Positions 27,780-50,239 of a stretch of 64,000 nucleotides of DNA are shown here, piece by piece (positions within the stretch are counted from its first letter, which is position 1; every line of letters starts with the position of its first letter). The notes beneath the pieces were generated by a model. It was not told the DNA's origin, did no database searches, and worked only from the letters and a program-made list of their open reading frames with translations. The stretch spans positions 416,001 through 480,000 of the forward strand of contig CAWCRS010000005.1 in NCBI GenBank assembly GCA_963798085.1. Reading direction: 5' to 3'. A program made the position numbers and the translations under genes. The stretch comes from an uncultured Gemmatimonadales bacterium. GTDB taxonomy: Bacteria; Gemmatimonadota; Gemmatimonadetes; Longimicrobiales; RSA9.

Positions 27780-29063
27780 ACCGCGTTACTGGGGCTCGGG
27801 CTGGTTGCTGGGGAACTGCTGAACTGCCACCGCAAAACCAGCTCCTGCGCCCTTGCCCGTTGCCGCTTACAGCACCACCTCGGTCACGACGCCGGCGCCT
27901 ACCGTGCGGCCGCCCTCGCGGATCGCAAAGCGCAGCTCCTTCTCCATCGCGATCGGCATGATCAGCTCGATCTCCATCTGCACGTTGTCGCCCGGCATCA
28001 CCATCTCCACTCCCGCCGGCAGCTGCACCGCCCCCGTCACGTCCGTCGTCCGAAAATAGAACTGCGGCCGGTACCCATTGAAAAACGGCGTGTGCCGGCC
28101 CCCTTCTTCCTTCGTCAGCACGTACACTTCCGCCTTGAACTTCGTGTGCGGCGTGATCGATCCCGGCTTCGCCAGCACCATCCCCCGCTCGATCTCTTCC
28201 TTCCCCACCCCGCGCAGCAGCAGCCCCACATTGTCCCCCGCAAACCCCTCGTCCAGCAGCTTGCGGAACATCTCCACCCCCGTCACTACCGCCTTCTTCG
28301 CCGCCCCAAGCCCCACCATCTCCACCTCATCCCCCACCTTCACCTTCCCCCGCTCGATCCGACCCGTCGCCACCGTCCCACGACCCGTGATGCTGAACAC
28401 ATCCTCCACCGGCATCAGGAACGGCTTGTCCGTCTCCCGCACCGGCTCCGGGATATAGCTGTCAATCGCATCCATCAATTCCCCGATCTTCTTCCCCCAC
28501 TCGCTCTCCGGGTCCCCGCTCTCCAGCGCCTTCAGCGCGCTCCCCCGGATCACCGGCGTGTCGTCCCCCGGAAAATCGTACTCCGACAACAGCTCCCGTA
28601 CTTCCAGCTCCACCAGGTCGATCAGCTCCGGGTCGTCCACCGCATCGCACTTGTTCAGGTATACCACCACGTACGGCACATTCACCTGCCGCGCCAGCAG
28701 TATGTGCTCCCGCGTCTGCGGCATCGGCCCATCCGCCGCACTCACCACCAGTATCGCCCCGTCCATCTGCGCCGCACCCGTGATCATGTTCTTCACATAA
28801 TCCGCGTGCCCCGGACAGTCCACGTGCGCGTAGTGCCGGTGCACCGTCTGATACTCCACGTGCGCCGTCGCGATCGTGATCCCCCGCTCCCGCTCCTCCG
28901 GCGCCTTGTCAATGTTGTCGAACGACACAAAGTCCGCCAACCCCTTCTTCGACTGGATCAGCGTGATCGCCGCCGTCAACGTCGTCTTCCCGTGGTCCAC
29001 ATGCCCGATCGTCCCCACGTTCACGTGCGGCTTCGTCCGCTCAAACTTCGCCTTCGCCATGTC
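27780..29063. repeat. Direct repeat, copy 2 (tuf plus 3' flank)
   Basis: Matches 10932-12215. Confidence 0.95.
27867..29060 (-). CDS. tuf: Elongation factor Tu (secE/nusG-linked copy)
   Basis: Translation identical to 11019-12212. Confidence 0.99.
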
Positions 29064-29380: not shown

Positions 29381-29561
29381 TCCTTCACGTCGACTCACCG
29401 CGGAGAGCGCTGGAGGGCGCGAAGCGGCCGGCTACAGGACTGGAGTTTCCGCGAATGCCTCGGGTGAATGAGGGGGTGATGGAGGTGAGGATCGGGTCTG
29501 CGCGTGCGCGCGCGCGATAACCTGCGGTGGCTGAGCAAGGCGTGGAGAAGCGGGCCGGGGG

Positions 29562-29570
29562 TGCTATTAT
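29562..29570 (+). promoter_or_regulatory. Candidate extended -10 promoter for the hhyS-paralogue/two-component operon
   Basis: TG-C-TATTAT about 35 bp before the ATG at 29604, in GC-rich context. Confidence 0.45.
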
Positions 29571-29603: not shown

Positions 29604-30644
29604 ATGCTCATGGGGTCCGCGCCGGGAGAAGCGGGTGGCGAAGGCGCCGCACCGATCGAGGCGATCTCGATTCTCTGGCTGACTGCGGGCCTGAGCTGCG
29701 ACGGGGACACGATCGCGCTGACCGGGGCCACGCAGCCGAGTATCGAGGACCTGATCTCGGGTGCGATACCCTGGACGCCGCGGGTCACGCTCTACAATCC
29801 CCTGCTGGCTCCCGAGACAGGCGACGACTTCCTGCAGTACTTCCATCGGGGCGCGGCCGGTTCGCTGGGGCCGTTCATCCTCGTAGTGGAAGGCTCGATC
29901 CCGGACGAGACGCTGAGCGGCGAGGGGTACTGGGCATCGTTCGGTACGGACCCGGAAACCAAACAGCCCATTACCACGTGCAGATGGATCGACAGGCTGG
30001 CGCCCAGGGCGTGGGCCGTCGTCGCCGCGGGAACGTGCGCGGCCTATGGCGGCATCCACGCCATGGCCGGCAACCCGACCGGTTGCATGGGGCTGCCCGA
30101 GTACCTGGGCTGGCAGTGGCGGTCCCATGCCAACGTACCGCTGGTCTGCATTCCGGGCTGCCCTGTGCAGCCGGACAACATGACCGAGACGCTGCTGTAC
30201 CTGCTCTATCAGGCCGCCGGTCGTGCGCCCGCGATCCCGCTCGACAATGCACTGCGGCCGCGCTGGCTGTTCCAGCAGACCGTGCACGAGGGCTGCGATC
30301 GCGGCGGTTACTATGAGCAGGGTGAGTTCGCGGACGCGTACGGCTCGCCACTCTGCATCGTGAAGCTGGGCTGCTGGGGTCCGGTCGTGCAGTGCAACGT
30401 GGGCAAGCGTGGCTGGATGGGCGGCGTAGGCGGCTGTCCGAATGTGGGCGGGATCTGCATTGGCTGCACCATGCCCGGGTTTCCGGACAAGTTCATGCCG
30501 TTCATGGATCAGCCGCCCGGCTCATTGCTCTCGTCCGCGGCGGTCTCGACATACGGACGCGCCGTGCATGCGCTCCGACGTTTCACGCAGGCGTCGCTCA
30601 ACAAGACACCGGTGCGGCACAAGCCCGGGCGTCCGTCTACCTGA
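29604..30644 (+). CDS. Second [NiFe]-hydrogenase small-subunit paralogue (group 1h type) with no adjacent large subunit
   Basis: Collinear with 33418-34479: CDGD, EGS, GTC, PGCP, HEGCDR, C..KLGCWGP, CN, CPNVGGICIGC; no Tat signal; lacks the C-terminal WRH..ELTTGY tail. Confidence 0.93.
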   Translation: MLMGSAPGEAGGEGAAPIEAISILWLTAGLSCDGDTIALTGATQPSIEDLISGAIPWTPRVTLYNPLLAPETGDDFLQYFHRGAAGSLGPFILVVEGSIPDETLSGEGYWASFGTDPETKQPITTCRWIDRLAPRAWAVVAAGTCAAYGGIHAMAGNPTGCMGLPEYLGWQWRSHANVPLVCIPGCPVQPDNMTETLLYLLYQAAGRAPAIPLDNALRPRWLFQQTVHEGCDRGGYYEQGEFADAYGSPLCIVKLGCWGPVVQCNVGKRGWMGGVGGCPNVGGICIGCTMPGFPDKFMPFMDQPPGSLLSSAAVSTYGRAVHALRRFTQASLNKTPVRHKPGRPST

Positions 30645-30649
30645 CTTCC

Positions 30650-32200
30650 ATGATGGCAGCGCACCAGCGCACGGAGAGCTTGCCACTCACGTCGCCGGAA
30701 GCGGAGACACTGCTTGCCGAGCTCGCGGGCGTATTCCTGCGCGAGCGCGGCCCGGGTGCCGCGGCCGTGGAGTCGGCGAACGGACAGTCGGAGGTTCCGC
30801 TCGTCGACCTCGATGCGCAGTACCGCACACTGGTCGAGCAGATTCCGGCCGTCGTGTTCATGGCCTATCTGGATCGTGGCATTGGTGAAGCGTACGTGAG
30901 TCCGCGCATCGAGGAGGCACTGGGCTTCTCGCAGGAGGAGTGGCTGGAGGATCCGGTGCGGTGGTACCGCCAGATCCATCCGGATGATCGCCAGCGCTGG
31001 AGTCTGGAAGCAGCCGAGATGTTTCTGACGGGCCGGCCGCTGCGCTCGGCCTATCGCGTGCTCTCGCGCGACGAGCGCGTGATCTGGTTCCAGTGCGAAG
31101 CCAAGATGGTGCGGCGGGAGGACGGCCGGCCGTGGTTCATCCACGGTGTGGGCGTCAATGTCACGGAGCTCAAGCATGGCGAGGCGGCGTTGCAGGCGGA
31201 GCGCAACCTCATGTCCGCCATTCTCGATACCGTGGGCGCACTGGTCATCGTGCTGGGACCGGGCGGTCGCATCATGCGGTTCAATCGCGCGTGCGAGGCG
31301 TTGAGCGGGTATCGGTCGGCCGAAGTGCAGGGCCGCTACCTGTGGGAGCTGTTTCAGAACGTGGAGGAAGCGGCACTCGTCCGCAGCGTGATCGAGAACC
31401 TGCGGCCCGGGGATGGTCGCAGCGTGTTCGAGGGTGCGTGGCAGACGCGTGACGCCGGGCAGTATCACATCGCGTGGTCCAGTATCGTGCTGCCGGCGAC
31501 GGCGACGGCGCCTTCGTGCATTGTCACCACGGGCATCAATGTAACCGAGCGGAAGCGCATGGAGAAGACCGTGCTCGAGATCAGCGCGCGCGAGCAGCGG
31601 CAGATCGCACAGGACCTGCACGACGGCCTGGGCCAGCACCTCACGGGCATTGCCTTCATGAGCAAGGTACTGCAGCAGGGGCTGGCGCGACGCTCGCCGG
31701 CGAGGGCGGCGGAAGCCACGAAGATCGTGCAGCTGGTCAACGAGGCGATCAACAAGACGCGCGAGCTGGCACGTGGCCTGCTTCCCGTGGTTTCCGATGC
31801 GGATGGCCTCATGTCCGCGCTGGCACGCTGGGCGCTGGAAGTGGAAGACCTGTTCGACGTCGCCTGCGCGTTCCACTGCCCCGAGCCGGTCCTGGTTGCG
31901 GATGTGAACGCGGCCACGCACCTGTACCTCATTGCGCACGAAGCCGTACACAACGCCATCAAGCACGGAAAGGCCCGCTGCGTCACGCTCTCGCTGACCA
32001 GCGCCGGCGGCACGGGCACGCTGCTGATCGAGGATGATGGCGTCGGATTCGGGGGCGCGTGTCTCGATAACACGGGATTAGGACTGCGCATCATGAACTA
32101 CCGTGCCAGCATGGTGGGCGGCGCGCTGGAAGTGCGGCCGGGCGAGGCAGGAGGCGTCACGGTGGCCTGCCGCTTTCCCGCGGACGGAGGCGTGCCGTGA
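30650..32200 (+). CDS. Soluble PAS-PAS sensor histidine kinase (HisKA_3, NarX/UhpB type)
   Basis: PAS_3 (IHPDDR), second PAS (FNRACEALSGY), H-box EQRQIAQDLHDGLGQHL, ATPase motifs EAVHNAIKHG, DDGVGF, GLGLRIM; no obvious transmembrane helix. Confidence 0.95.
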   Translation: MMAAHQRTESLPLTSPEAETLLAELAGVFLRERGPGAAAVESANGQSEVPLVDLDAQYRTLVEQIPAVVFMAYLDRGIGEAYVSPRIEEALGFSQEEWLEDPVRWYRQIHPDDRQRWSLEAAEMFLTGRPLRSAYRVLSRDERVIWFQCEAKMVRREDGRPWFIHGVGVNVTELKHGEAALQAERNLMSAILDTVGALVIVLGPGGRIMRFNRACEALSGYRSAEVQGRYLWELFQNVEEAALVRSVIENLRPGDGRSVFEGAWQTRDAGQYHIAWSSIVLPATATAPSCIVTTGINVTERKRMEKTVLEISAREQRQIAQDLHDGLGQHLTGIAFMSKVLQQGLARRSPARAAEATKIVQLVNEAINKTRELARGLLPVVSDADGLMSALARWALEVEDLFDVACAFHCPEPVLVADVNAATHLYLIAHEAVHNAIKHGKARCVTLSLTSAGGTGTLLIEDDGVGFGGACLDNTGLGLRIMNYRASMVGGALEVRPGEAGGVTVACRFPADGGVP

Positions 32201-32886
32201 CGGCGGATTCCGTGCGCGGCTACCAGGGGCGGGGCAAACACCGTGTTTTTGTCGTGGACGATCACCCCATCGTGCGGCAGGGGCTGGCGCTGCTCATCAA
32301 CCAGCAGCCGGACCTGATGGTGTGCGGCGAGGCGGAGGACGCGAACCAGGTGCTGCAGGCAATCGACGCGGCGCAGCCGGACGTTCTCGTGCTGGACATC
32401 ACGCTGCGCGGCCCGGACGGCATCGACGTTCTGAAGATGGTGCGCTCCGCCCAGCCGGAATTGCCGGTGCTGATCCTGTCCATGCACGACGAATCGCTCT
32501 ACGCGGAGCGGGCACTGCGGGCGGGCGCCAACGGCTACATCATGAAGCAGGAAGCAACGGAGAACGTGCTGGTGGCCCTGCGGCGCATTCTGCGGGGCGA
32601 AGTACACGTGAGCCCGCGCGTCGCCCACCGCATCGTGCAGCAGCTCGTGCCCGGCTCTCCGCGGGCCAGGCCGGCGTCGATCGCGAGCCTGAGCGATCGC
32701 GAGCTCGAGGTGTTCCGCCTGATCGGAGCCGGTTACGGCACGCGCCGCATCGCGCAGGAACTGCACCTCAGTGTGAAGACCGTGGAATCGTACCAGGCGC
32801 ACATCAAGGAGAAGCTCTCGCTGGACGGAGCGCGCGCCCTCATGCGCCGCGCCATCGAATGGACTCTGCAGGAAGAACGTGGCTGA
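32197..32886 (+). CDS. NarL/FixJ-family response regulator (REC plus LuxR HTH)
   Basis: VVDDHPIVRQG, VLVLDITL, LSDRELEVFRLIG..LSVKTVESY; GTGA overlap with the kinase stop. Confidence 0.96.
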   Translation: MTADSVRGYQGRGKHRVFVVDDHPIVRQGLALLINQQPDLMVCGEAEDANQVLQAIDAAQPDVLVLDITLRGPDGIDVLKMVRSAQPELPVLILSMHDESLYAERALRAGANGYIMKQEATENVLVALRRILRGEVHVSPRVAHRIVQQLVPGSPRARPASIASLSDRELEVFRLIGAGYGTRRIAQELHLSVKTVESYQAHIKEKLSLDGARALMRRAIEWTLQEERG

Positions 32887-33250
32887 TTGCACCGCCGAGC
32901 TGAGAGAGTGCCGCGGCTCGGCTGCAGGGCGCAACAACAGGTGATTCCCCGATCTGATCCAGGCGGCGTGGCGTGCTTCTGCAGGCAGCCGCCTGTTGTC
33001 TTTCTTCTTTCGTGCTGCGCGGTTTCGTCCCTTTTTTCAATCGCCTGAAGCCGAACGTGCTGCGGCCTGCCCGTCGCCCGCACCGACGCTCGCTATAACA
33101 GCCAGTTAGACGCACCGCCGGCCCCTGGCGTGGTGCCGGGCGGCCGGCGCGGTGCGGACAGTGTGACGACTGGCAGGGCAGGCGCGGCCAGCGTGGCGCG
33201 CAGCCCGGCAGCGGCGCTGGCATTCCTGCGCGGCGGGCGCGAAAGCCGGG

Positions 33251-33326
33251 GTAGGGGAATCCCCCAGACCGCAGGTGCGGGGGTGGGGGCGGGCCTGATT
33301 GTGGCCGCGGCGGCGGAAGTCAATCT
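33251..33326 (+). promoter_or_regulatory. Candidate regulator box and activator-dependent promoter of the hhySL operon
   Basis: Palindrome GGGGA-A-TCCCC at 33254-33264, then CCTGA-TTGTGG-16 bp-CAATCT; same spacing recurs at 50188-50231. Confidence 0.4.
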
Positions 33327-33417: not shown

Positions 33418-34479
<1,062 letters not shown>

Positions 34480-34532: not shown

Positions 34533-36323
34533 ATGAGCACGATGACCGCCCGGGATGCGACGACACGCGGCAGCTCGCGCAAGCTGGTCGAGATGAACTG
34601 GGATCCAATCACGCGCATTGTGGGCAGCCTGGGCATCTTCACCAAGATCGATTTCGAGAACCGGGAAGTGGCGGAGTGCCACAGCACCTCGTCGATCTTC
34701 CGCGGCTACAGCATTTTCATGAAGGGCAAGGATCCGCGCGACGCGCACTTCATCACGAGTCGCATCTGCGGCATCTGCGGCGACAATCACGCGACCTGCG
34801 CCATGTACGCACAGAACATGGCGTTCGGCGTGAAGCCGCCGCCGCTGGGCGAGTGGATCGTCAATCTGGGTGAGGCGGCCGAGTACATGTTCGACCACAA
34901 CATCTTCCAGGACAACCTGGTGGGGGTCGACTTCTGCGAACAGATGGTGAAGGCCACCAACCCGGGCGTGTGGGAAAAGGCGCAGAAGACGGAAGCGCCC
35001 AACGCGGCGCTGCACGGGCACCGCACCATCGCCGACATCATGACGGCGCTGAATCCGTTCACGGGCACGTTCTACCGCGAGACGCTGCACGTGAGCCGCT
35101 ACACGCGCGAGATGTTCTGTCTCATGGAAGGCCGGCACGTGCATCCCTCGACGCTCTATCCCGGCGGCGTCGGCACGGTGCCCACGGTGCAGCTCTTCAC
35201 CGACTACCTCGTCCGGCTGGCGCGCTACGCCGAATTCATGAAGAAGTGCGTGCCGCTGCACGATGACCTGTTCAACTTCTTCTACGATGCGCTGCCCGGT
35301 TACGAGAAGGTGGGATTGCGGCGCACGCTGCTGGGATGCTGGGGCTCGTTCAACGATCCCGACGCCTGCGACTACACCTACAGGAACATGTCGAGCTGGG
35401 GCGACAGGATGTACGTGACGCCGGGTGTGGTGGTGGACGGCAAGCTGGTGACGCACGACCTGGTGGACATCAACCTGGGCATCCGCATTCTGCTGGGGCA
35501 CTCATTCTACGATGACTGGGACCGGTCGGAGCGGTTCGTGGCGACCGATCCGCTGGGCAACGCGGTGGACCAGCGGCATCCCTGGAATCAGACGACGCTC
35601 CCGAAGCCCCAGAAGCGCGACTTCGACGGCGCCTACAGCTGGACCATGTCGCCGCGCTGGTTCGACGGCAAGGACCACCTGGCGCTGGACACGGGCGGCG
35701 GTCCCATTGCCCGCCTCTGGGCGACGGCACTGGCAGGCATCGTGGACAACGGCTACGTAAAGTCCACGGGCAGCAGCGTGAAGATGTATCTGCCGAAGAC
35801 GGCCACACTGCCGGACGCGGAATTCGAGTGGAAGATCCCGCAGTGGAGCAACGCCATCGAGCGCGATCGTGCGCGCACCTATTTCCAGGTCTATGCCGCC
35901 GCGTGCGCCTACTATTTCGTGGAGAAGGCGCTGGCCGAACTGCACGCGGGCCGCACGCGCACATGGAGCGAGTTCGAAGTGCCGCAGGAAGCGGTTGCCT
36001 GCGGTTTCCACGAAGCGGTGCGTGGCGTGCTCTCGCATCACGTGGTGATTCGTGATGGCAAGATCGCGAACTACCATCCGTATCCGCCCACGCCGTGGAA
36101 CGGCAGCGTGCGCGATGTCTACGGCACACCGGGTCCGTACGAGGATGCGGTGCAGAACACGCCCATCTTCGAGGAGAACGGACCGGACACGTTCAAGGGC
36201 ATCGACATCATGCGCGCGGTGCGCAGCTTCGATCCCTGCCTGCCCTGCGGCGTGCACATGTACCTGGGCAACGGCAAGGTGCTGCAGACGCACCACTCCT
36301 CGATGTTCGGCCTGCATTCCTGA
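34533..36323 (+). CDS. hhyL: Group 1h [NiFe]-hydrogenase large subunit
   Basis: WDPITRIVGSLG, L1 motif TSRICGICGDNH, L2 motif SFDPCLPCGVH plus a cleavable C-terminal extension. Confidence 0.96.
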   Translation: MSTMTARDATTRGSSRKLVEMNWDPITRIVGSLGIFTKIDFENREVAECHSTSSIFRGYSIFMKGKDPRDAHFITSRICGICGDNHATCAMYAQNMAFGVKPPPLGEWIVNLGEAAEYMFDHNIFQDNLVGVDFCEQMVKATNPGVWEKAQKTEAPNAALHGHRTIADIMTALNPFTGTFYRETLHVSRYTREMFCLMEGRHVHPSTLYPGGVGTVPTVQLFTDYLVRLARYAEFMKKCVPLHDDLFNFFYDALPGYEKVGLRRTLLGCWGSFNDPDACDYTYRNMSSWGDRMYVTPGVVVDGKLVTHDLVDINLGIRILLGHSFYDDWDRSERFVATDPLGNAVDQRHPWNQTTLPKPQKRDFDGAYSWTMSPRWFDGKDHLALDTGGGPIARLWATALAGIVDNGYVKSTGSSVKMYLPKTATLPDAEFEWKIPQWSNAIERDRARTYFQVYAAACAYYFVEKALAELHAGRTRTWSEFEVPQEAVACGFHEAVRGVLSHHVVIRDGKIANYHPYPPTPWNGSVRDVYGTPGPYEDAVQNTPIFEENGPDTFKGIDIMRAVRSFDPCLPCGVHMYLGNGKVLQTHHSSMFGLHS

Positions 36324-36970
36324 TGGCCGCCACGAGCGAGTTCGAGCAGCACATCCAGCGCATCGATCAACTGGTCGGTGCGCTGGAAGCAGCGCCCGAT
36401 TCGGCGGTACGCACGTCGGCGCGCGAACTGGTGCAGCGCATCATGGAGCTGCACGGCGCCGGACTGGAGCGACTGCTCACAGTGGTGCACGAAGCGGGGG
36501 CCGCAGGCGGCTCCATGATCGAGAATCTCGCGCGTGATCCGCTGGTCAGCAGCCTGCTGCTGCTCTACGGCCTGCACCCTGTGGATCTGCCCACGCGGGT
36601 GCAGCAGGCGCTGGAGACGTCGCGGCCGTACCTGCGCTCGCACGGCGGCAACGTCGAGCTGGTGTCGGTCGATGCGGCGGGCACGGTGCGACTGCGCATG
36701 GAAGGCAGCTGTCACGGCTGCCCATCCTCCGCGCTCACGCTGAAACTGGCCATCGAGCAGGCCATCCGGGAAGCGGCGCCGGATGTGCTGGCGATCGAGG
36801 TGGAAGGCGAAACTTCACAACCGCCGCAGCCTGCGCCGCTGCCTGAACATCTCGTACCGCTGGGGTACAGCGGGCGCAACGGTACGGTGAACACAGGCGC
36901 CGGACAACGCTCCGGCAACGGGACGGGAGACGTCGCCTGCACTACGGCGGACGCCGTGTCACCAGCTTGA
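36323..36970 (+). CDS. NifU/NfuA-like Fe-S protein of group 1h clusters
   Basis: RPYLRSHGGNVEL..GSCHGCPSS..TLK NifU C-terminal motif; TGATG overlap with hhyL. Confidence 0.9.
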   Translation: MAATSEFEQHIQRIDQLVGALEAAPDSAVRTSARELVQRIMELHGAGLERLLTVVHEAGAAGGSMIENLARDPLVSSLLLLYGLHPVDLPTRVQQALETSRPYLRSHGGNVELVSVDAAGTVRLRMEGSCHGCPSSALTLKLAIEQAIREAAPDVLAIEVEGETSQPPQPAPLPEHLVPLGYSGRNGTVNTGAGQRSGNGTGDVACTTADAVSPA

Positions 36971-37629
36971 CCGTGGCGCGCGCACCACTCCAGACGGGCG
37001 ATGCGGCGTTCGCCAATCTGCGCCGTTTCGTGCAACGGCGTGCGCCCGAAGAGCGTTGCGACATGTGCGCGCGCAGCATCGCCGCGGAGCACGATCACCT
37101 GATCGAGCTGAAGACGCGGCAGCTGTCCTGCGCGTGTCCGGCCTGCGCGGTGCTGTTCAGCGGCCAGACGGGGATGCGGCACAAGCGCGTGCCGCGGCGG
37201 GTGCGTCTGCTCGAGGATTTCCGGATGAGCGACGCGCAGTGGGACGGCCTGCGCATCCCCATCAACCTCGCCTTCTTCTTTCACAGCAGCACGGAAGGCC
37301 GCACGCTGGTCTTCTATCCCAGCCCGGCCGGTCCCACGGAGTCGCTGCTGCCGCTGGACACGTGGCAGGACGTGGTGCGTGATAACGACGTGTTACAGGA
37401 TGCGCAGACCGACGTCGAGGCGCTGCTCGTGAACCGTTCGGCACACGCGCGCGGCGCGGGTCCGGCCGAGTACTATCTGCTGGGCATCGACGAGTGCTAC
37501 CGCCTGGTGGGTCTGATCCGCGCGCGCTGGAAGGGTCTGCACGGAGGCAGCGAGGTGTGGCAGTCGATCGGCGACTTCTTCGACGAGCTGCGGCGTCGTG
37601 CGCGGGCCGGCGGGGGACATCGTGCCTGA
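36967..37629 (+). CDS. Conserved group 1h hydrogenase accessory protein (DUF5947-like, Cys-rich)
   Basis: CDMC..H..CACPAC, YPSPAGPTESLL, IDECYRLVGLIR; family name from memory. Confidence 0.75.
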   Translation: MTVARAPLQTGDAAFANLRRFVQRRAPEERCDMCARSIAAEHDHLIELKTRQLSCACPACAVLFSGQTGMRHKRVPRRVRLLEDFRMSDAQWDGLRIPINLAFFFHSSTEGRTLVFYPSPAGPTESLLPLDTWQDVVRDNDVLQDAQTDVEALLVNRSAHARGAGPAEYYLLGIDECYRLVGLIRARWKGLHGGSEVWQSIGDFFDELRRRARAGGGHRA

Positions 37630-38272
37630 CCTGAGCTTCGAAATCGAGGGCGTGGAAGCCGTGCGCTTCGCGGTCACGCCGCAGCTCACATTCCAGATGG
37701 GCGTCAGCAACAGCGTGCCGGACGAAGCGGTGGCGACCGTCGTGCTGCGCTGCCAGATCCAGATCGAGGTGGCACGTCGGCGCTACGGCAGCGCGGAGGA
37801 GGAGCGGTTGCGCGACCTGTTCGGCGAGCCTGCTCGCTGGAGCCAGACGCTGCGCACCATGCTGTGGACACACGTCAATGTGGTGGTGAGTCCCTTCACC
37901 GCGCACACCACCGTGGCAGTGCCCGTGCCGTGCACTTACGACTTCAATGTCGCTGCCACCAAGTACTTCTATGGCCTGACGGAGGGCGAGATCCCGCTCT
38001 CGTTCCTGTTCAGCGGCACGGTGTTCTACGAAGTCGGAGAGGGCGGTCTCATGGCGGCGCCGATCTCGTGGGACAAGGAAGCGCGCTTCCGGCTGCCCGT
38101 GCAGACGTGGCAGGAGCTGATGGACGCCTATTACCCTAACACGGCGTGGCTGCAGCTGCGGCGCGATGTGTTCGACCGGCTGTACCAGTACAAGGTGAAA
38201 CGGGGCATTCCGACGTGGGAGCAGGCGCTGGAGAACATCCTGCCCCCGGCGGAAGATGCGGTGCAGCAATGA
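37622..38272 (+). CDS. Conserved group 1h hydrogenase accessory protein (DUF6084-like)
   Basis: LRCQIQIE..RRY..LRDLFGEP.RW, PCTYDF, YYPNTAWL; family name from memory. Confidence 0.75.
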   Translation: MPDLSFEIEGVEAVRFAVTPQLTFQMGVSNSVPDEAVATVVLRCQIQIEVARRRYGSAEEERLRDLFGEPARWSQTLRTMLWTHVNVVVSPFTAHTTVAVPVPCTYDFNVAATKYFYGLTEGEIPLSFLFSGTVFYEVGEGGLMAAPISWDKEARFRLPVQTWQELMDAYYPNTAWLQLRRDVFDRLYQYKVKRGIPTWEQALENILPPAEDAVQQ

Positions 38273-39315
38273 GAGAGAGCGAGGTCGAGCGGGTGGCGGC
38301 GGCGCTGCTGTACGAGGGCTACATGCTGTATCCGTACCGGCCCTCAGCCGTGAAGAACCGGCAGCGTTTCAATTTCGGCGTGCTCTATCCCGAAGCATGG
38401 TGTCAGGGACGGCCGGGCTCGGACTCGTGGTACCTGCAGGCAGAGTTCCTGGTGACGGGCGCGGCCACTGCGCAGCTCGATGTGCGACTGCGCTTCCTGC
38501 AGCTCGTCGACCGCCAGGTGGCCGAGGTACTCGAGCCGGTCGCGGAGCTGGCGCCTGCGACAACGTACCAGCCGGTCCCGGCGCTGGCGGTGGAGGGGCG
38601 CACCTACTCGAGCTGGCAGGAAGCCACCGAGCGCGAGGTGGTGGTGTCCTGCCCGGTGATGGCACTCAGCGCGCCCGGCTTCGAGCATTCGTTCCAGGAG
38701 CCGGCCGGCGAGCAGATCGAGCCGCTGCGCACGGCTTCGGGACTCGTGGCCGGGGTGTGCCTCCGCCGGCGCGCGGCTCTGCACGGCGCGCTGCAGGCGT
38801 CTGGGATGATATGCGGTGACGACGTCGCGCGCGTCACGGTGCGCGTCGTGAACCAGGCGCTAACCGACGGTTCGAACGAGCGCGGTGCGGCCCTGATGCA
38901 GTCGCTGGTCTCGGCACACCTGATCGCGCGGGTGCGGGATGGCGCGTTCTGCTCACTGCTGGACCCGCCGCCCGAGTTGCGCGCGGCCGCGAGCGCCTGC
39001 CGCCAACACAGTGTGTGGCCGGTACTGGCGGGCGAAGAGGGAACGCACGACACGCTGCTCTGCTCACCCATCGTCGTCTACGATTATCCGCGTCTTGCGC
39101 CGGAGAGCCGGGGCGACTTCTTCGACGGCACGGAGATCGACGAGATGCTGTCGCTGCGCGTGCTGACGCTGACGGACGCGGAGAAGCTGGAGATGGCGCA
39201 GGCCGATGAGCTGACGCGTCGTCTGCTGGAGCGCACGGAGGCGATGGGCGAAGCCGAGCTGATGAGCCTGCATGGCACCCTGCGCGACATGCGCCGACCT
39301 GGAGCTGCGCGATGA
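38269..39315 (+). CDS. Conserved group 1h hydrogenase accessory protein of unknown function
   Basis: LLYEGYMLYPYRPSA.KN and SPIVVYDYP..APES.GDFFDGTEIDEML; coupled overlaps on both sides. Confidence 0.8.
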   Translation: MRESEVERVAAALLYEGYMLYPYRPSAVKNRQRFNFGVLYPEAWCQGRPGSDSWYLQAEFLVTGAATAQLDVRLRFLQLVDRQVAEVLEPVAELAPATTYQPVPALAVEGRTYSSWQEATEREVVVSCPVMALSAPGFEHSFQEPAGEQIEPLRTASGLVAGVCLRRRAALHGALQASGMICGDDVARVTVRVVNQALTDGSNERGAALMQSLVSAHLIARVRDGAFCSLLDPPPELRAAASACRQHSVWPVLAGEEGTHDTLLCSPIVVYDYPRLAPESRGDFFDGTEIDEMLSLRVLTLTDAEKLEMAQADELTRRLLERTEAMGEAELMSLHGTLRDMRRPGAAR

Positions 39316-40154
39316 GCGCGTCGCGTCACGACCCGCTGGAGCCGCACGCACTGGAGTTCCTGCGCGTCACGGAGGCAGTGCTGCGCGCGGGTGACCCGGT
39401 GCGCATCCTGCCGCGCGCGGGTGGCGACGTGTTCGATCTCGCGCTGGCGGGCAAGGCAGGCATCATCGAATCCATCGAAACGGATTTCGAAGGCCGGCTG
39501 CACTGTGCCGTGGTGCTGGACGATGACCCCGGCAGCGACCTGGGCATGGCGCGCATGCCTGCGCACCGGTTCTTCTTCGCGCCCGATGAGCTGGAGCGTC
39601 TGGCGCAACGCGCGCCGCGCAGCGTGCCGGCGGCGAGCGGTACGCTGCTGATCGCCGGCATCGGCAACATCTTCCTGGGCGATGATGCGTTCGGCGTGGC
39701 CGTAGTGCGCCGTCTGTTCAGCCGACCGTTGCCGGAGAACGTGACGTTAGTCGACTACGGGATTCGCGGCTTCGATCTGGCGTGCGCGCTGGTACGCGGC
39801 TACGACCGCACGATCCTGGTCGATGCGTGTCCACGCGGTGAAGCGCCGGGAACGCTGTACGTGATGGAGCCCGACCTGACGGCACTGGATGCGGCTGCCG
39901 ACGCCGCGGCCGTCGTGGACGGACACAGCATGAATCCGCTGAACGTGCTGCGTCTGGCGCGCACCCTGGGCGGACCGCTGAACCCGGTACTGCTGGTGGG
40001 TTGCGAGCCCGAGTCGCTGGGACCGGAGGAAGGCCTGATCGGCCTGAGCAAACCGGTGGAGGCGGCGGTGGAGCAGGCCGTGCCCCTGATCGAGTCATTG
40101 ATTGCCGAGTTCCTGGAGCAGCAGACCGCGGTCAGCGATCGAACCACATCCTGA
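39312..40154 (+). CDS. Hydrogenase maturation endopeptidase (HyaD/HupD family) with an extra ~100 aa N-terminal domain
   Basis: AGIGNIFLGDDAFGV, DYGIRG, LVDA, GHSM, VGCEP. Confidence 0.92.
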   Translation: MSASRHDPLEPHALEFLRVTEAVLRAGDPVRILPRAGGDVFDLALAGKAGIIESIETDFEGRLHCAVVLDDDPGSDLGMARMPAHRFFFAPDELERLAQRAPRSVPAASGTLLIAGIGNIFLGDDAFGVAVVRRLFSRPLPENVTLVDYGIRGFDLACALVRGYDRTILVDACPRGEAPGTLYVMEPDLTALDAAADAAAVVDGHSMNPLNVLRLARTLGGPLNPVLLVGCEPESLGPEEGLIGLSKPVEAAVEQAVPLIESLIAEFLEQQTAVSDRTTS

Positions 40155-40169
40155 GAGAGGTGAAATCAC

Positions 40170-40382
40170 ATGAGGGATCGGATCGAGGTATCGGAGAACA
40201 CGGGTGCGGCGGACCGGGACACGCTGCTCCTGTTCGGCGGTCTGGCGCTCATCGTCATGGGTGCGGGCATGATCCTGTCCAACGCAACGGTGCGGCGTCA
40301 GCTGGGCCAGTTCGGAGCCGGCAATCTGCTGCAGGCGGGCCTGCCTGATTTCCAGCGGTACCTGAAGCTGAGGTCAATGTGA
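40170..40382 (+). CDS. Small single-transmembrane protein
   Basis: 70 aa; GAGGTGA SD; hydrophobic LLLFGGLALIVMGAGMIL; ends PDFQRYLKLRSM. Confidence 0.75.
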   Translation: MRDRIEVSENTGAADRDTLLLFGGLALIVMGAGMILSNATVRRQLGQFGAGNLLQAGLPDFQRYLKLRSM

Positions 40383-40972
40383 TCCTGCAGTCCGCGCGAG
40401 CCCTGTTCGACAGAGAGACCCACGTGACACAGTACGTCATCGATGCGGGAGTCAGCCGGTTCACCGTGCGCGCCTTTGCCGCGGGCATGCTGTCGGCACT
40501 GGGCCACAATCCGACGTTCGCGGTGCGCGATCTGAAGGGCGAACTGGAGTTCGACGAACAGAATCCTGCCGCTTCGTCGATGCGGCTGGTGGTGCGCGCC
40601 TCGTCGCTGGAGCTGCAGGACAACATGAGCGAGAAGGACCGGCGCGAGATTCTGCGGACGTTGAACGAGGACGTACTGGAAACGGCGCGTTATCCCGACA
40701 TCGTGTACGAGTGCCGCAGCGTGACGGTGCAGCGGAGCGATGGGCCGCTGGACCTTCTGCTGGACGGTGAGCTGAGCCTGCACGGGGTCACGCGACGGCA
40801 GGCGATTCCCGTGCGCATTTCGGTGATGGGCAGCCTGCTGCGCGCGTTCGGCGAGTTCACGCTGCGGCAGACCGACTATGGCATCAGGCTGGTGGCGGTC
40901 GCGGGCCGGATGCTGCAGGTGAAGGATGAGCTGAAGTTCTCGTTCGAGCTGGTAGCGCGCGCAGCGGCCTGA
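40379..40972 (+). CDS. YceI-family (lipid/polyisoprenoid-binding) protein
   Basis: LETARYPDIVY, GELSLHGVTR, TLRQTDYGI; start may instead be the GTG near 40423. Confidence 0.85.
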   Translation: MILQSARALFDRETHVTQYVIDAGVSRFTVRAFAAGMLSALGHNPTFAVRDLKGELEFDEQNPAASSMRLVVRASSLELQDNMSEKDRREILRTLNEDVLETARYPDIVYECRSVTVQRSDGPLDLLLDGELSLHGVTRRQAIPVRISVMGSLLRAFGEFTLRQTDYGIRLVAVAGRMLQVKDELKFSFELVARAAA

Positions 40973-41019
40973 CGTCAGCGGCACTGCGCGCACCGGTTCA
41001 CTGCAGGAGCATCCCAACC

Positions 41020-41343
41020 ATGTGCCTCGCCATACCCGGCAAGATCGTGGAGCTGGCCGCGGGTGACGTTCCGCTCGCGCTGGTCGAGGTGGCGGGTGTG
41101 CGCCGCCGCGTCGACCTCGCTCTGCTGGCGGACGATCCGCCCGTGCTGGGCGACTGGGTGCTGATCCACGTCGGATTCGCCATGAGCAGGATCAGCGAGG
41201 CGGCGGCGCAGGAACAGATGCGGATGCTGGCGCTGCTGGGCGAGGACGAGGCTGCCATGCAGGAGGTGCGCGGCTACGGCCTGCACAATGGCGATGCGGG
41301 CGATACGCGCGGCACGGAGACATCCAATGAAATTCGTCGATGA
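41020..41343 (+). CDS. hypC: Hydrogenase maturation chaperone HypC
   Basis: MCLAIPGKIV and GDWVLIHVGFAM. Confidence 0.96.
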   Translation: MCLAIPGKIVELAAGDVPLALVEVAGVRRRVDLALLADDPPVLGDWVLIHVGFAMSRISEAAAQEQMRMLALLGEDEAAMQEVRGYGLHNGDAGDTRGTETSNEIRR

Positions 41344-42456
41344 GTTCCGCGACCCCGGGATCATTGCCAGGACGCGGGAAGAGATTCGTCGTCTGGCGGA
41401 TCCGGGCCGGCACTACCGCCTCATGGAGGTGTGCGGCGGGCACACGCACGCCATCTACCGTTTCGGGCTGAAGGACCTGCTGCCGGCGAACATCGAGTTG
41501 ATCCACGGCCCGGGGTGTCCGGTGTGCGTCCTGCCCATGGGCCGCATCGACGATGGGCTGGCGCTGGCCGACGAGCCGCATTTCGTGTTCACGGCGTTCG
41601 GCGACATGATGCGCGTGCCGGGCACGCAGGGCAGCCCGCTGGCGCACAAGGCCATGGGCAAGGATGTGCGCATCGTGTATTCGCCGGCGGACGCGCTCAA
41701 GCTGGCGCAGCGCAATCCCGACCGGCACGTGATGTTCTTCGCCATCGGCTTCGAGACCACGGCGCCGTCCACCGCCCTCACGCTGATGCGCGCGAAGCAG
41801 CTGGGCGTGCACAACTTCTCGGTGTTCTGCAACCACGTGACGATCATCCCGGCCATCCGTGCGATCCTGGATTCGCCGGACATGCGGCTGGACGCCTTCA
41901 TCGGGCCGGGTCACGTTTCGACGGTGATCGGCTGCCGCCCGTACGAGTGGATCGCGCAGGACGCAGGGCAAGCCCATCGTCGTCTCGGGCTTCGAGCCAC
42001 TGGACATGCTGCAGTCGATGGTCATGCTGCTGCGCCAGCTGCGTGACGGTGAAGCGAAGGTGGAGAACCAGTACGACCGCGTGGTGCCGTGGGAAGGGAA
42101 CCGCGCGGCGCTGCAGGCGATGGCGGAAGTCTTCGAGCTGCGCCCGTACTTCGAATGGCGGGGTCTCGGCTTCATCTCGCAATCGGCTCTGCGCATCAGC
42201 GAGCGCTACGCGGAGTACGACGCCGAGCGGCTCTTCGACGTGCCGGGCGTACGGGTGACCGACCCCAAGGCGGCGCAGTGCGGCGAGGTGCTCAAGGGCG
42301 TGCTGAAGCCGGTGCAATGCAAGCTGTTCGGCCGCGAGTGCACGCCGGAGCACCCGGTCGGCGCACTGATGGTTTCCTCGGAAGGCTCATGCGCAGCCTA
42401 CTACAACTACGAACACCGGAAGACGGAATCGAGCGCGGCACTGGTCACCGGCGTGA
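41327..42456 (+). CDS. hypD: Hydrogenase maturation protein HypD (indel near 41965; 3' end uncertain)
   Basis: MEVCGGHTH, GPGCPVC, GFETT, GPGHVS, C-terminal CGEVLKG..C.LFG.ECTP..MVSSEGSCAAYY. Confidence 0.95.
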
Positions 42457-43518
42457 ATGGGGACGCGGTCACAGCCGCGATTCCGCCGCTCCGCTTTCGT
42501 GATCCCGGCATCGAGATGGCGCACGGCGCGGGCGGCAAGGCCAGCCGGCGGCTGGTCGAGGGTCTGTTTGCGCCGCTGCTGCTGTCGGGCAGCGGCGCAG
42601 CGCTCGGCGATGCCGCGCGACGTGACGGTGGACGGCACCCGGATGGCGTTGACCACCGACAGCTTCGTGGTGACGCCGCTGCGTTTCCCCGGCGGCTCGA
42701 TCGGCGAGCTGGCCGTCAACGGCACCGTGAACGATCTCGCGGTGTCGGGCGCACGCGCGATCGCGCTGGTCACGACCTTCGTGCTCGAGGCGGGACTGCC
42801 CACGAGGAGCTGGAGGCAGAGGTGCGCGCGATGGCGGCCGCGGCCCGCGCGCGCGGGCGTCGCGATCGTGGGCGGCGACACAAGGTGGTGGAGCACGGCA
42901 AGGCCGACCGGATGTACATCACCACCACCGGCATTGGGCGGCACCATCCCGGGCGTCAGCGCTGGACGCGCGCTCGGTGCGCGCCGGGCGACAAGGTGCT
43001 GCTCTCCGGGCCCGATCGGCGATCACGGGATCACCATTCTGCTGGCGCGCGGGGAACTGGACCTGGAGGCGGACCTGCGCTCGGACACGCGCTCGGTTTT
43101 GCCGCTGGTGGAGGCGCTGGCGGCGGCGGCCGGCGCCGGGCACTTCGCTGGATGCGGGATCCCACCCGCGGCGGCGTGGCGACGTCGCTCAACGAACTGG
43201 CGCGCGACTGCGGCCTGGCGGTGGCATCTCGTCGAGGAGCAGATCCCGATGCGCGACGAGGTGCGCGGCGCCTGCGAGCTGCTCGGGCTGGACCCGCTGC
43301 ACATCGCCAACGAAGGCCAGTTCCTGGCGGTGGTGGCGGCCGGATGCGCGGATGCGGCGCTGGCGGCGCTGCAGCGCGACGCCGGGCGGCGAGGAGGCGC
43401 GCATCATCGGCGAGGTGCGGGACGCAGCCCGCCGCCACGGTGCTGGTGCGACACGCGCTACGGCGGAAGCCGCATCGTGGACATGCTGGTGGGCGATCCG
43501 CTGCCGCGCATCTGTTAG
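42457..43518 (+). CDS. hypE: Hydrogenase maturation protein HypE (multiple apparent indels)
   Basis: MAHGAGGKAS, TTDSFVV.P..FPGGSIGELAVNGTVNDLA, MRDPTRGGV, ANEG, C-terminal LPRIC. Confidence 0.93.
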   Translation: MGTRSQPRFRRSAFVIPASRWRTARAARPAGGWSRVCLRRCCCRAAAQRSAMPRDVTVDGTRMALTTDSFVVTPLRFPGGSIGELAVNGTVNDLAVSGARAIALVTTFVLEAGLPTRSWRQRCARWRPRPARAGVAIVGGDTRWWSTARPTGCTSPPPALGGTIPGVSAGRALGARRATRCCSPGPIGDHGITILLARGELDLEADLRSDTRSVLPLVEALAAAAGAGHFAGCGIPPAAAWRRRSTNWRATAAWRWHLVEEQIPMRDEVRGACELLGLDPLHIANEGQFLAVVAAGCADAALAALQRDAGRRGGAHHRRGAGRSPPPRCWCDTRYGGSRIVDMLVGDPLPRIC

Positions 43519-43531
43519 CGGACAGCATGGG

Positions 43532-44736
43532 ATGGCGAGCCGAGCGATCCACGCTCTGCGACGCGCCGCTCGAGGAAAGGCCTGCTCGAACGCAACGAGC
43601 TCTTCGAGCGACTTCTTCGCCCGGGAAGCGCCGCGCCTGGCCGAGGCCTGCCGCGAGATGTCGTAGCGCTTCCTGCGCGGCGGGCCGGCTGCTGGCGTTC
43701 GGACGGGGGCCGTACGCCACCGACGCGCAGCACGTGTCGGTCGAGTTCGTGCATCCCGGTCATCGTGGGCAAGCGGGCGCTGCCCGCGCTCGATCTCTCG
43801 CTGCTGTTCGGGCCGTGGCTGGAGGCGATCGCTGCAGCCCGAAGACATCGTGATGGGCTTCGGGCCGCCCGACGGCGATCCCGAAGTGCCGGCGGCGCTG
43901 CGACTGGCCGCGGGCCGGGGCGCGATGACATTCGCGCTGCCGGGCAGCGACGGCTCCTATGCCGTGGCGCCGGCGACGCGCCGATCCCTTCATGCACCAG
44001 GAACTGGTCGGAGATTCTCTATCACACGCTCTGGGAACGGTGCACGTCTTCTTCGAGCACCGCGAGCTGGGACACGCATGTCGGGCAGGCCGGCTTTCTG
44101 TATCCGTTCCTCGGGCAGGCGACGCCAGGACGAGCCGGACGCTCCTGCCGAGGTCGCGGCTCCATCCGCATGAAGGTGGCGGACGATGCGCAGCTGCGGC
44201 GCCGGGTGGCGCGGGAGCAGGCCGAGCCGATCAGCCGATGCCACGCGTGGCCATCAGCGAGCGGCTGGCGCGGGGCGGCAAGCTCATCATGCTCGGCAAC
44301 GGCGGCTCGGCGACCGACGCCAACGACTTGGCGCTCGATTGCGTGGCGCCGCCGCCCGGGTACGCGGCCGCTGCCGGCCATCTCGCTGGCGCTCGAGCCC
44401 GCCAACATCACGGCGATCGCGAATGATGTCGGCATCGACGTCGTTTTCCTGCGCCAGCTGATCGCCCATGGCGCAGCCCGGACGATGTGGTGATCGCGAT
44501 CTCCACCAGCGGCGGCTCGCGCAATATCATCGTGGCGCTGGAGGAGGCGCGTCGGCGGGGTTTGCTGACGCGTGGCACTGCTGGGCTACGACGGTGGCGA
44601 GATCCGGCGCCGCGGGCTGGCCGATTTTTCGCTCGTCGTGCAGTCCGACTACATCCCGCGCATCCAGGAAGTGCAGGCGAGCATCTACCACATCATGCGC
44701 GAAGGACTGGAGCAGGCGAGGCATGGCGCGCATTGA
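43532..44736 (+). CDS. GmhA-like double SIS-domain protein (heavily frameshifted)
   Basis: Fragments ATDAQHVSVEFVHP, GNGGSATDAND, ITAIANDVG, AISTSGGSRNI, SDYIPRIQEVQ. Confidence 0.8.
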
Positions 44737-45019
44737 GCTGTACGGCACGGCGGGCTGTCAGGCCACGCAGGACATGCGCGAGTGGCTGGACTGGCGCGGC
44801 GTCGAGTTTGCCGAATTCGATGTCGAGGCGGACCCGCAGGCGAGGGAGCGGCTGCGCGCGCTGGCGGGCGATCCGCGCACGGTGCCCGTACTCATTGAGG
44901 ACGGACGCGTGGCGCAGGTAGGCTGGCAGGGTCGCGGTTGCGTCATTGGCGACCACACGCCCGGGAACATGCAGGCGGGGATGAGCCCGCCGCCCTTGTC
45001 GAGTCGGATGGGCGGCTGA
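44723..45019 (+). CDS. Glutaredoxin/NrdH-like protein
   Basis: IELYGTAGCQAT, FDVEAD, RTVPVLIEDG, GWQGRGC. Confidence 0.8.
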   Translation: MARIELYGTAGCQATQDMREWLDWRGVEFAEFDVEADPQARERLRALAGDPRTVPVLIEDGRVAQVGWQGRGCVIGDHTPGNMQAGMSPPPLSSRMGG

Positions 45020-45021
45020 CC

Positions 45022-45366
45022 ATGCACGAGTTGTCGATTGCCCTGAGCCTGGTGGATGCAGCGCGCGAGGAGGGCGAGCGACTGGGCACGCCGGTGCTGG
45101 CCGTACACGTGCGCGTGGGTCGCCTCTCGGGCGTGGTGAGCGAGGCGCTGCTCTCCTGCTACGAGATCGCGTGCCACGAGACACCGCTGCAGGGCTCGCG
45201 ACTGGTGATCGAGGAAGTGCCCGTGGTGGTCTTCTGCGATGACTGCCGCGCGCAGCGGGACCTGCCCCTGGGCTCGTGGTTCACGTGTCCGGAGTGCGGC
45301 GCGCCGACGCCCGATGTGCGGCAGGGTCGCGAGCTGGAGCTGGTGGCGCTGGAGGTGGCGGCGTGA
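45022..45366 (+). CDS. hypA: Nickel metallochaperone HypA
   Basis: MHELSIA, CDDC..CPEC, GREL. Confidence 0.96.
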   Translation: MHELSIALSLVDAAREEGERLGTPVLAVHVRVGRLSGVVSEALLSCYEIACHETPLQGSRLVIEEVPVVVFCDDCRAQRDLPLGSWFTCPECGAPTPDVRQGRELELVALEVAA

Positions 45367-46070
45367 GCACGGAACCGCGTCTGGTCGAGGTGCGCAGGAA
45401 CGTGCTCAAGGAGAACGATCGTGCAGCCCGCCAGTTGCGCGAGCAGTTCCGCGCCGCGGGCGTCTGCACGGTGAGCCTGGTCTCGGGTCCGGGCTCGGGC
45501 AAGACGATGTTCCTGGAGCGCACGCTGACGCTGCTGCAGCCCGGATACCGTGTGGCCGCGCTCGTGGGTGACCTGGCAACCGAAAACGATGCGCAGCGAC
45601 TCGCGCGCAGCAAGGCACCGGTGCGCCAGATCGTGACCGGCACAGTCTGTCACCTGGAAGCCGCGATGGTGCAGCGGGCGGCAGAAGGCTGGGACTTCGG
45701 ACAGCTCGACTTCCTCTTCATCGAGAACGTGGGCAACCTGGTGTGTCCCGCATCGTTCGATCTCGGCGAAGAACTGCGGCTCGTCCTGATGTCCGTGACG
45801 GAAGGCGAAGACAAGCCCCTCAAGTACCCTACCATCTTCAACACCGCGGACGTCGCGATCATCACGAAGCTGGACCTGGCCGCCGCGGTGGAGTTCGACC
45901 AAGACACCGCCACGCGCAACATCCTCGCCGTGCGTCCGGGTATGCCGATTCTGTGCGTGTCGGCGCGCACCGGTGAGGGCATGAGCACGTGGCTCGAGCT
46001 GCTGGCCTCGCGCCGGCGGCAGCTGCACGCTTCGGGGAGCGACCACGCCGCACTGTCGGGAGCGCTGTAA
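45363..46070 (+). CDS. hypB: Nickel-insertion GTPase HypB
   Basis: SGPGSGKT, CHLEA, IENVGNLVCPASFDLGE, TEGEDKPLKYP. Confidence 0.97.
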   Translation: MSTEPRLVEVRRNVLKENDRAARQLREQFRAAGVCTVSLVSGPGSGKTMFLERTLTLLQPGYRVAALVGDLATENDAQRLARSKAPVRQIVTGTVCHLEAAMVQRAAEGWDFGQLDFLFIENVGNLVCPASFDLGEELRLVLMSVTEGEDKPLKYPTIFNTADVAIITKLDLAAAVEFDQDTATRNILAVRPGMPILCVSARTGEGMSTWLELLASRRRQLHASGSDHAALSGAL

Positions 46071-50187: not shown

Positions 50188-50231
50188 GTAGTGAAAACCC
50201 TGCTTGCGAAATGACGGACCAGCGGCAATCG
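50188..50231 (+). promoter_or_regulatory. Candidate regulated promoter of the nickel permease
   Basis: GTAGTGAAAACCCTGC-TTGCGA-16 bp-CAATCG, resembling the pattern upstream of hhyS. Confidence 0.4.
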
Positions 50232-50239
50232 TGACGGCC

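Follow-up and report, generated by a model that had tools for sequence, protein, structure and literature searches.

The window analysed here, a stretch of 64,000 nucleotides from an uncultured Gemmatimonadales bacterium (assembly GCA_963798085.1, contig CAWCRS010000005.1, positions 416,001 to 480,000 of the forward strand), carries the hhySL genes of a group 1h NiFe hydrogenase and, directly in front of them, a second small-subunit gene, a soluble histidine kinase and a response regulator of the NarL family. Group 1h hydrogenases mediate the soil uptake of atmospheric H2. The second, kinase-linked group 1h small subunit is called S′ in what follows, and HhyS and HhyL designate the catalytic pair. 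Comparison across genomes points to a real and conserved module, which is probably a convergent hydrogenase-based sensor controlling hhySL. A first-pass annotation of the window had suggested a sensor in which a duplicated HhyS either borrows HhyL or acts alone. This interpretation is partly supported: S′ belongs to an old clade tied to one PAS input, is found in a natural fusion with a kinase and is accompanied by a putative operator linking the regulator type to hhySL, and borrowing is favoured over acting alone, while the remainder is a prediction from sequence.

S′ (29604..30644, + strand; 346 amino acids) consists of the Pfam domains Oxidored_q6 and NiFe_hyd_SSU_C. Since its best match in the PDB is HofK of entry 5AA5 (E 6e-160, residues 18-339) and that of HhyL is HofG of the same entry, both are assigned to group 1h; S′ and HhyS are 70-71% identical. 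A gap of 5 bp separates S′ from the kinase (30650..32200, +; 516 amino acids), in which an N-terminal helix with the conserved motif EAExxLxxLAxVF (30695..30739, +), a candidate docking element, is followed by PAS1 (a PAS_3 domain; 30812..31189, +), PAS2 (a PAS domain), HisKA_3 with the H-box histidine His324, and HATPase_c. The most hydrophobic 19-residue window of the kinase scores 1.8 and lies within PAS2, so that no membrane helix is evident. The regulator (32197..32886, +), composed of Response_reg and GerE with the acceptor Asp67 assigned by motif and the recognition helix SVKTVESYQAHIKEKL, overlaps the kinase by 4 bp. It is separated by 531 bp from hhyS (33418..34479, +), which encodes the catalytic group 1h small subunit with its LTTGY tail and is followed by hhyL (34533..36323, +), the sole group 1h large-subunit gene of the window's own genome (G000, an assembly 90% complete) and the proposed partner shared with S′. 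The assembly has just one other NiFe large subunit; it is encoded on contig C7, shows 27% identity and comes with a small subunit of its own. The short spacing, the overlap and the placement before hhySL had all been called correctly at the outset, as had the intact state of the second small subunit. The evidence for the locus, including its junction with the tuf region, is the assembly itself; an identical gene order occurs in G623 and in L061, a Gemmatimonadales metagenome-assembled genome (MAG) that is the nearest named relative (HhyL 91% identical). The kinase, with HisKA_3, HATPase and H-box, and the regulator, with REC and LuxR domains, have the make-up of the NarX/NarL class; an identification as NarX/NarL itself was rejected because no NCBIfam equivalog cut-off was reached.

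A set of 79 GTDB loci was retrieved with S′ as the query and was hence picked by likeness to S′, so that counts within it are not a prevalence. S′ stands directly before a kinase in 31 of these loci, 29 of them intact and two (L040 and L065) frameshifted. The 22 S′ proteins in a careful 44-row tree share a single branch (support 100/98) within group 1h, and a quick tree of 103 rows is concordant; kinase-linked S′ proteins thus constitute a clade of their own across genomes, and not a recent strain-specific duplicate, the outcome that the first-pass annotation had held would speak against a sensor. The ratio of nonsynonymous to synonymous substitution rates is 0.016-0.038, comparable to that of catalytic HhyS (6 of 10 acidobacterial S′ pairs being unsaturated), and marks, at the level of sequence comparison, a clade under purifying selection. 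Residues were counted in 34 S′ rows against 67 catalytic rows, leaving out the frameshifted catalytic rows of L078 and L034 and the distant L083. All 10 conserved cysteines are present in 34/34 S′ rows and the histidine of the distal cluster is invariant (alignment A2); a CDGD motif is changed to CDGE in six of the 34. The loss of the C-terminal tail, first described as encompassing both its EP-x-W-R and its LTTGY parts, holds for the LTTGY-like end (present in 1/34 S′ and 67/67 catalytic rows) and not for EP-x-W-R, which is usually retained across the clade. Two additional cysteines had likewise been singled out: Cys126 does mark the clade (29/34 versus 5/67 rows), whereas Cys182 was rejected as a sensor-specific residue (30/34 versus 25/67). 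Further features specific to S′ are Trp57, Trp137, Gly267 and an altered C-terminal helix at residues 314-331. The segments around the proximal cluster, which in known hydrogenases lie on the side of the large subunit, are nearly invariant. An AlphaFold2 model of S′ from a 27-row alignment was not usable (mean pLDDT 64.5, C-terminal domain below 50).

Several small subunits in the set depart from this pattern. An S′-clade protein in L060 (2797-3849) retains an ELTSGY tail and may be an intermediate or a recombinant. An Actinomycetota MAG (L045, 2084-3094, − strand) carries a second hhyS of the catalytic clade without an adjacent large subunit, a duplication unrelated to S′. A distant small-subunit lineage, roughly 50% identical and extended at the C-terminus by a long stretch rich in Trp and Tyr, occurs in L083, L084, L089 and L222, which are relatives of the window genome.

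The reverse search started from the kinase: 80 metagenome loci were retrieved by an alignment of the helix and PAS1 alone. S′ lies upstream of this kinase input in 75/80 loci, within 400 bp in 74 and at about 700 bp in one; four of the remaining five have less than 900 bp of upstream DNA. Among 45 loci with at least 4 kb downstream, the regulator is present in 45/45, hhyS in 44/45 and hhyL in 43/45, and PAS2 is missing in 18/45. S′ and PAS1 travel together regardless of the kinase core, which is HisKA_3 in the window, HisKA in L018, L057 and L020, and HisKA_2 in L072 and L079; no NtrC-type partner was found near the HisKA-type kinases of L018 and L057 among open reading frames of at least 150 amino acids. 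A tree was built from 27 module-type PAS1 domains (18 taken from loci or fusions whose context is known, nine library matches grouped by helix motif) and the 35 best generic PAS_3 repeats among 150 listed. The module-type domains form one branch (100/99, the bootstrap being not fully settled) against the 35 generic repeats, with a topology that largely mirrors the S′ tree. The helix motif is strong in window-type kinases of Acidobacteriota and Gemmatimonadota and weak, or undetected by hidden Markov model, in Binatota-type ones. A search for a cofactor of PAS1 returned only generic PAS domains from the PDB and the Atlas, and a predicted complex of two S′ and two helix-PAS1 chains scored 0.17, a value below the 0.32 mark that speaks neither for nor against contact.

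The linkage persists when the locus is split or condensed. In G064, S′ and a helix-PAS1-HisKA kinase share one contig, and a PAS2-HisKA_3 kinase and the NarL regulator stand at hhySL on another, an arrangement that reads as the two halves of the window's kinase in separate proteins. Clean in-frame S′-PAS-HisKA_2 fusions were recovered from ENA (P0006, 761 amino acids) and JGI (P0050, 763 amino acids), which fall in one 90% cluster and whose small-subunit part lies in the S′ clade of the 44-row tree. Other apparent fusions were set aside, P0036 and P0040 as frameshift artefacts with out-of-frame stretches, and P0292, P0296 and P0317 as not being S′ fusions. A single partial record from a Thermoleophilaceae bacterium (P0018, NCBI MEA2419514.1) joins a small-subunit homologue, 54% identical to S′ and with the distal-cluster histidine replaced by arginine (TAREGC), to PAS-PAS and the start of HisKA; here a small subunit may have been recruited to a kinase a second time and independently. 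Two JGI proteins (P0017 and P0021, separate single-member clusters) combine group 1h-like small subunits with a C-terminal caspase-like CHAT domain.

The partners of S′ were sought among the large subunits of 35 genomes with S′. All 35 also have hhyL, and 32/35 have no more than one group 1h large subunit; two copies of catalytic type are present in G060, and G071 and G075 have a second, divergent large subunit, L′. A search for L′ at the phylum level was too dilute (2/201). Within the order of G075 (165 genomes), 20 genomes have a group 1h large subunit and four an additional L′ (G075, G389, G390 and G391). The gene order S′-L′-PAS kinase of G071 and G075 was confirmed in the other three, with frameshifts in G389 and G391, and in all five genomes it stands beside a separate hhySL, which is of actinobacterial lineage and nearby in G071 and G075. 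L′ retains RICGICG and DPCLPC, both NiFe ligand motifs, and keeps a C-terminal extension after DPCLPC; the S′L′ pairs stand before a kinase without maturation genes. G113 and G059 yielded no NiFe hydrogenase genes beyond an S′-clade gene and one for a large subunit; in G113 these lie within a full hyp operon followed by a PAS kinase. In a quick tree, the large subunits partnering S′ fall into one group (SH-aLRT 94) that lies inside the acidobacterial/planctomycete HhyL lineage; the deepest S′ in the tree, L076, is an orphan. Because S′-clade proteins are encoded with a large subunit, with their own L′ in five genomes and as the sole small subunit in two assemblies, borrowing of HhyL is the favoured prediction over S′ acting alone. 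Apparent fusions of small and large subunits (P0007-P0010 and P0033) were discarded, since they resemble catalytic genes run together by frameshift or read-through.

The connection of the regulator to hhySL comes from the region 5′ of hhyS. After removal of near-identical promoters (71 to 61), the palindrome GGGA-N-TCCC was found 5′ of the catalytic hhyS in 44/61 non-redundant loci with the regulator type and in 5/50 loci without it; because the loci are related, the counts do not stand for independent events. A weight matrix with the consensus ATCRGGGAWTCCCYGAT and a threshold of at least 12 bits recovered 60/61 loci on leave-one-out, 0/305 shuffles and 5/50 controls, and three of the five matching controls (L095, L100 and L101) are from module-carrying genomes. 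Two held-out loci score 25.4 and 28.6 bits, and hhyS genes of the same phylum without the regulator score below zero. None of 72 regions upstream of S′ contains the site. Three features follow the palindrome: a second, weaker site at about +23, an A tract at about +37 and, at about +54, a conserved TTG. On the promoter reading adopted here, this layout suggests an upstream activator site. The window's own genome has 16 matches in 6.2 Mb, two of which fall in the regulator-hhyS gap: GTAGGGGAATCCCCCAG (33251..33267, no strand assigned; 15.5 bits on leave-one-out), about 160 bp 5′ of the hhyS start, and a second operator-like palindrome, ACAGGTGATTCCCCGAT (32937..32953, no strand assigned; 16.1 bits). 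In 4/4 loci of the Blastocatellia type, the regulator has another recognition helix and sites of the TACGTAGGT type occur instead, which are found in no other locus of the set; the operator thus appears to change with the regulator type. ATCGGGGAATCCCCGAT is a candidate binding site of the phosphorylated regulator, and the S′ unit, without an operator of its own, is probably expressed at a low constant level.

In the reading that we favour, with roughly even confidence, S′ pairs with HhyL, the redox state of S′ sets the kinase via PAS1 and the regulator activates hhySL, amounting to H2-coupled sensing through a borrowed large subunit. First, S′ would carry three Fe-S clusters and pair with a matured large subunit, which would be the single HhyL in the window's genome and a dedicated L′ in some Binatota-type genomes. 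Oxidation of H2 at the NiFe site would then reduce the clusters of S′, which, devoid of the catalytic C-terminal tail, would dock on the N-terminal helix and PAS1 of the kinase and not on the usual electron acceptor. To judge from the domain anatomy, autophosphorylation at His324 would change as a result, and with it phosphotransfer to the NarL regulator's Asp67. The co-occurrence of the regulator type with a palindrome placed like an activator site suggests that control would finally be exerted on hhySL and the maturation genes. A shortage of carbon or energy is probably needed as a second input. In exponential phase, hhyL transcripts are described without hhyS transcripts in the available text of PMC8027828, which would leave free HhyL for S′.

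Kinase-linked sensory hydrogenases are known from another group of the NiFe enzymes. In the parts of the HydDB paper at hand (PMC5037454), sensory NiFe hydrogenases appear only in group 2, and kinase-linked ones only as group 2b; the histidine-kinase-linked sensors of that group include HoxBC-HoxJ-HoxA of Cupriavidus necator and HupUV-HupT-HupR (excerpts of PMC5037454 and PMC12319191). Like these, the module consists of a hydrogenase component without its usual outlet that is tied to a soluble PAS histidine kinase and a regulator, beside the uptake hydrogenase that it would control. The window subunits, in contrast, belong to group 1h and not to group 2, as HofKG matches far better than any other solved chain and S′ nests in group 1h. 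HoxA and HupR are NtrC-type (sigma-54) regulators, whereas the window's kinase is of the HisKA_3 type and its NarL-family regulator contains only Response_reg and GerE. In addition, a dedicated pair of small and large subunits is missing in G000 and present only in the five relatives with L′. The module would therefore work like a group 2b sensor and is not a member of that group, from which it departs in subunit group, dedicated pair and regulator type. With HofKG (5AA5) and HhySL, S′ shares all the conserved Cys/His ligands for three Fe-S clusters; it differs in forming its own clade, in lacking the LTTGY tail and in having a kinase next to it where the catalytic subunit has a large subunit and maturation genes. 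A broader proposition, which we regard as somewhat short of an even chance, is that group 1h gave rise, independently of group 2b, to its own sensory-hydrogenase family, sensing atmospheric H2 with positive feedback via the shared large subunit. This family would exist in at least four forms, namely a dedicated S′L′ pair (Binatota-type), a lone S′ borrowing the large subunit of the enzyme it controls (window, Acidobacteriota), an S′-kinase fusion, and a sole enzyme that both oxidizes H2 and signals; the PAS domain would be the fixed plug, while cores, regulators and operators would be exchanged.

A number of findings weigh against an H2 sensor built in this manner. S′ and the kinase input are not always neighbours: L168 has the input with 1959 bp of upstream DNA but no S′, and in G073 S′ and the kinase lie on different contigs. 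The PAS1 family is very large (6,653 representatives at E<=1e-30), so that a ligand of its own is possible, and the helix motif gives a weak match of 10 bits in L072 and does not reach significance in L212, L079 and the fusions. The bare operator pattern occurs three times in the window against 2.8 expected, no excess over chance, so that the case for the operator rests on its conservation. The two assemblies in which S′ appears to be the sole small subunit, G113 and G059, are MAGs of unstated completeness from which a copy may be missing. Seven of 17 acidobacterial genomes (see below) have a single small-subunit copy, which makes the module dispensable for group 1h enzymes generally. According to the accessible portions of PMC8027828, carbon limitation induced the hydrogenase and growing cells took up no H2, and the extra hhyS gave a detectable transcript in KBS 83 but none in the H2-oxidizing E. 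aggregans. On the strength of these observations in PMC8027828, H2 as the sole signal is not supported, and a reading in terms of energy state has to be retained.

Such a reading would keep the wiring and let S′-HhyL report electron flux or the energy state of the cell (respiratory back-pressure, O2 or starvation) rather than the level of H2; we consider it a minority possibility. As atmospheric H2 is nearly constant, the useful signal would be whether electrons have an outlet. The induction by carbon limitation in two acidobacteria with the extra hhyS fits this (PMC8027828), as do the argument that trace H2 is ubiquitous and the indifference of hhySL of Streptomyces avermitilis to H2, both from excerpts of PMC4767420. 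The Streptomyces loci among those retrieved are without the module, however, so that the latter result is no test; the non-response of Streptomyces has been explained by a missing sensor in the same excerpts. The S′L′ pairs also argue for H2, since they keep both NiFe ligand motifs and stand before a kinase without maturation genes, as group 2b sensors do. Distinctly unlikely, in our estimate, is a free S′ that binds the kinase without any large subunit and senses redox state or O2 through its Fe-S clusters. The lack of an own large subunit for most S′ genes, the clade-marking Cys126 and the new Trp residues, and the absence of a large-subunit part from the S′-kinase fusion are what one would expect of it; against it stand the five to seven genomes in which S′-clade proteins are paired with a large subunit, the near invariance of the proximal-cluster segments and the presence of hhyL in 35/35 S′ genomes. 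Least likely is that S′ is an alternative catalytic small subunit passing electrons to another acceptor and merely sharing an operon with a two-component system in which the PAS domain responds to a ligand of its own, which would suit the retention of every Fe-S ligand and the position of the S′-type gene of G113 (in the usual place of hhyS, with a full maturation operon and no other small subunit found; G059 is similar) but leaves unexplained the S′-kinase fusion, the matching S′ and PAS1 trees, and the parting of S′ from hhySL together with helix-PAS1 when the locus splits.

The existence of the extra gene is already in print. An "additional copy of hhyS" or "hhyS homolog" about 3,600 bp upstream of hhySL is reported for Acidobacteriaceae KBS 83, Edaphobacter aggregans and Pyrinomonas methylaliphatogenes in the sections of PMC8027828 at hand, in line with the first-pass annotation, which mentions second hhyS copies in some Acidobacteria. 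This spacing matches the distance from S′ to hhyS of 3.8 kb in the window and 3.65 kb in L006; the extra copy is very probably the same module, a match made by spacing. Within its accessible main text, PMC8027828 contains neither "kinase" nor "response regulator" and gives the extra hhyS no function, and its supplement SI-2 may cover two-component genes. The module was the topic of no title or abstract opening in the literature search; Greening 2015 (PNAS) and the PMC8027828 supplement, both outside its scope, may bear on novelty. What is added here are the S′ and PAS1 clades, the exchange of kinase cores, the fusions, the L′ pairs and the operator. For hhySL of Acidobacteriota, Gemmatimonadota and other groups, the module supplies candidates for the sensor, the kinase, the regulator and the binding site; if S′ borrows HhyL, it would exemplify a sensor made through subunit swapping inside one enzyme family.

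The distribution of the module was followed in two phyla. An even sample of 400 genomes of Acidobacteriota (the phylum of L012) contains 17 with a small subunit of at least 62% identity, and 10 of the 17 have two copies, a count made without inspection of the loci. In the phylum of the window, 10 of 300 genomes match and three of these (G623, G502 and G669) have S′ before the PAS input; no S′-type copy occurs in the 40 nearest relatives, and the one genome of the same genus is without any match. The cluster is patchy in the window's lineage, given three of 10 matching genomes in the phylum and none among the 40 nearest relatives.

The promoter and terminator elements of the locus are matches to consensus only. 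An extended −10 element (TG-TATTAT) marks a promoter-like site for the S′-kinase-regulator unit (29543..29570, +), divergent from a tuf promoter (29380-29352, −), and a terminator-like hairpin (32981..33001, +) lies 3′ of the regulator; no separate sigma-70 promoter for hhyL was found by consensus scan. Downstream of hhyL, an accessory and maturation cluster (36323..46070, +) encodes NifU-like, DUF5947, DUF6084, HycI protease, YceI-like, HypD and HypB proteins, with hypC, hypE and hypA (+) read from the list of open reading frames. In window positions 41327-44500, hypD is shortened (Pfam positions 4-204 of 351) and a hypE/gmhA-like region runs in shifting frames; these changes are probably long-read indel errors and possibly decay. 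A NicO-like nickel transporter gene (window 50231-51046) lies near the end of the cluster.

Elsewhere in the assembly, contig C7 carries a second hydrogenase (G000:C7:970533-973600), with a Tat-type small subunit and a group 1 large subunit, divergent from a molybdopterin-enzyme-like gene; a weak operator-like match of 12.8 bits between the two, at 973591, is a borderline hint of possible co-regulation. No tRNA gene was found beside the tuf copy at window positions 27780-29063; the hydrogenase cluster begins some 160 bp from the tuf promoter, in divergent orientation. Over 1284 bp, of which about 90 bp are 3′ flank, this tuf copy and that at 10932-12215 show 100% identity, which reflects gene conversion or assembly collapse. 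On contig C5 (G000:C5:189593-193300), 22 tRNA genes are densely packed on one strand, as is typical of a mobile tRNA array.

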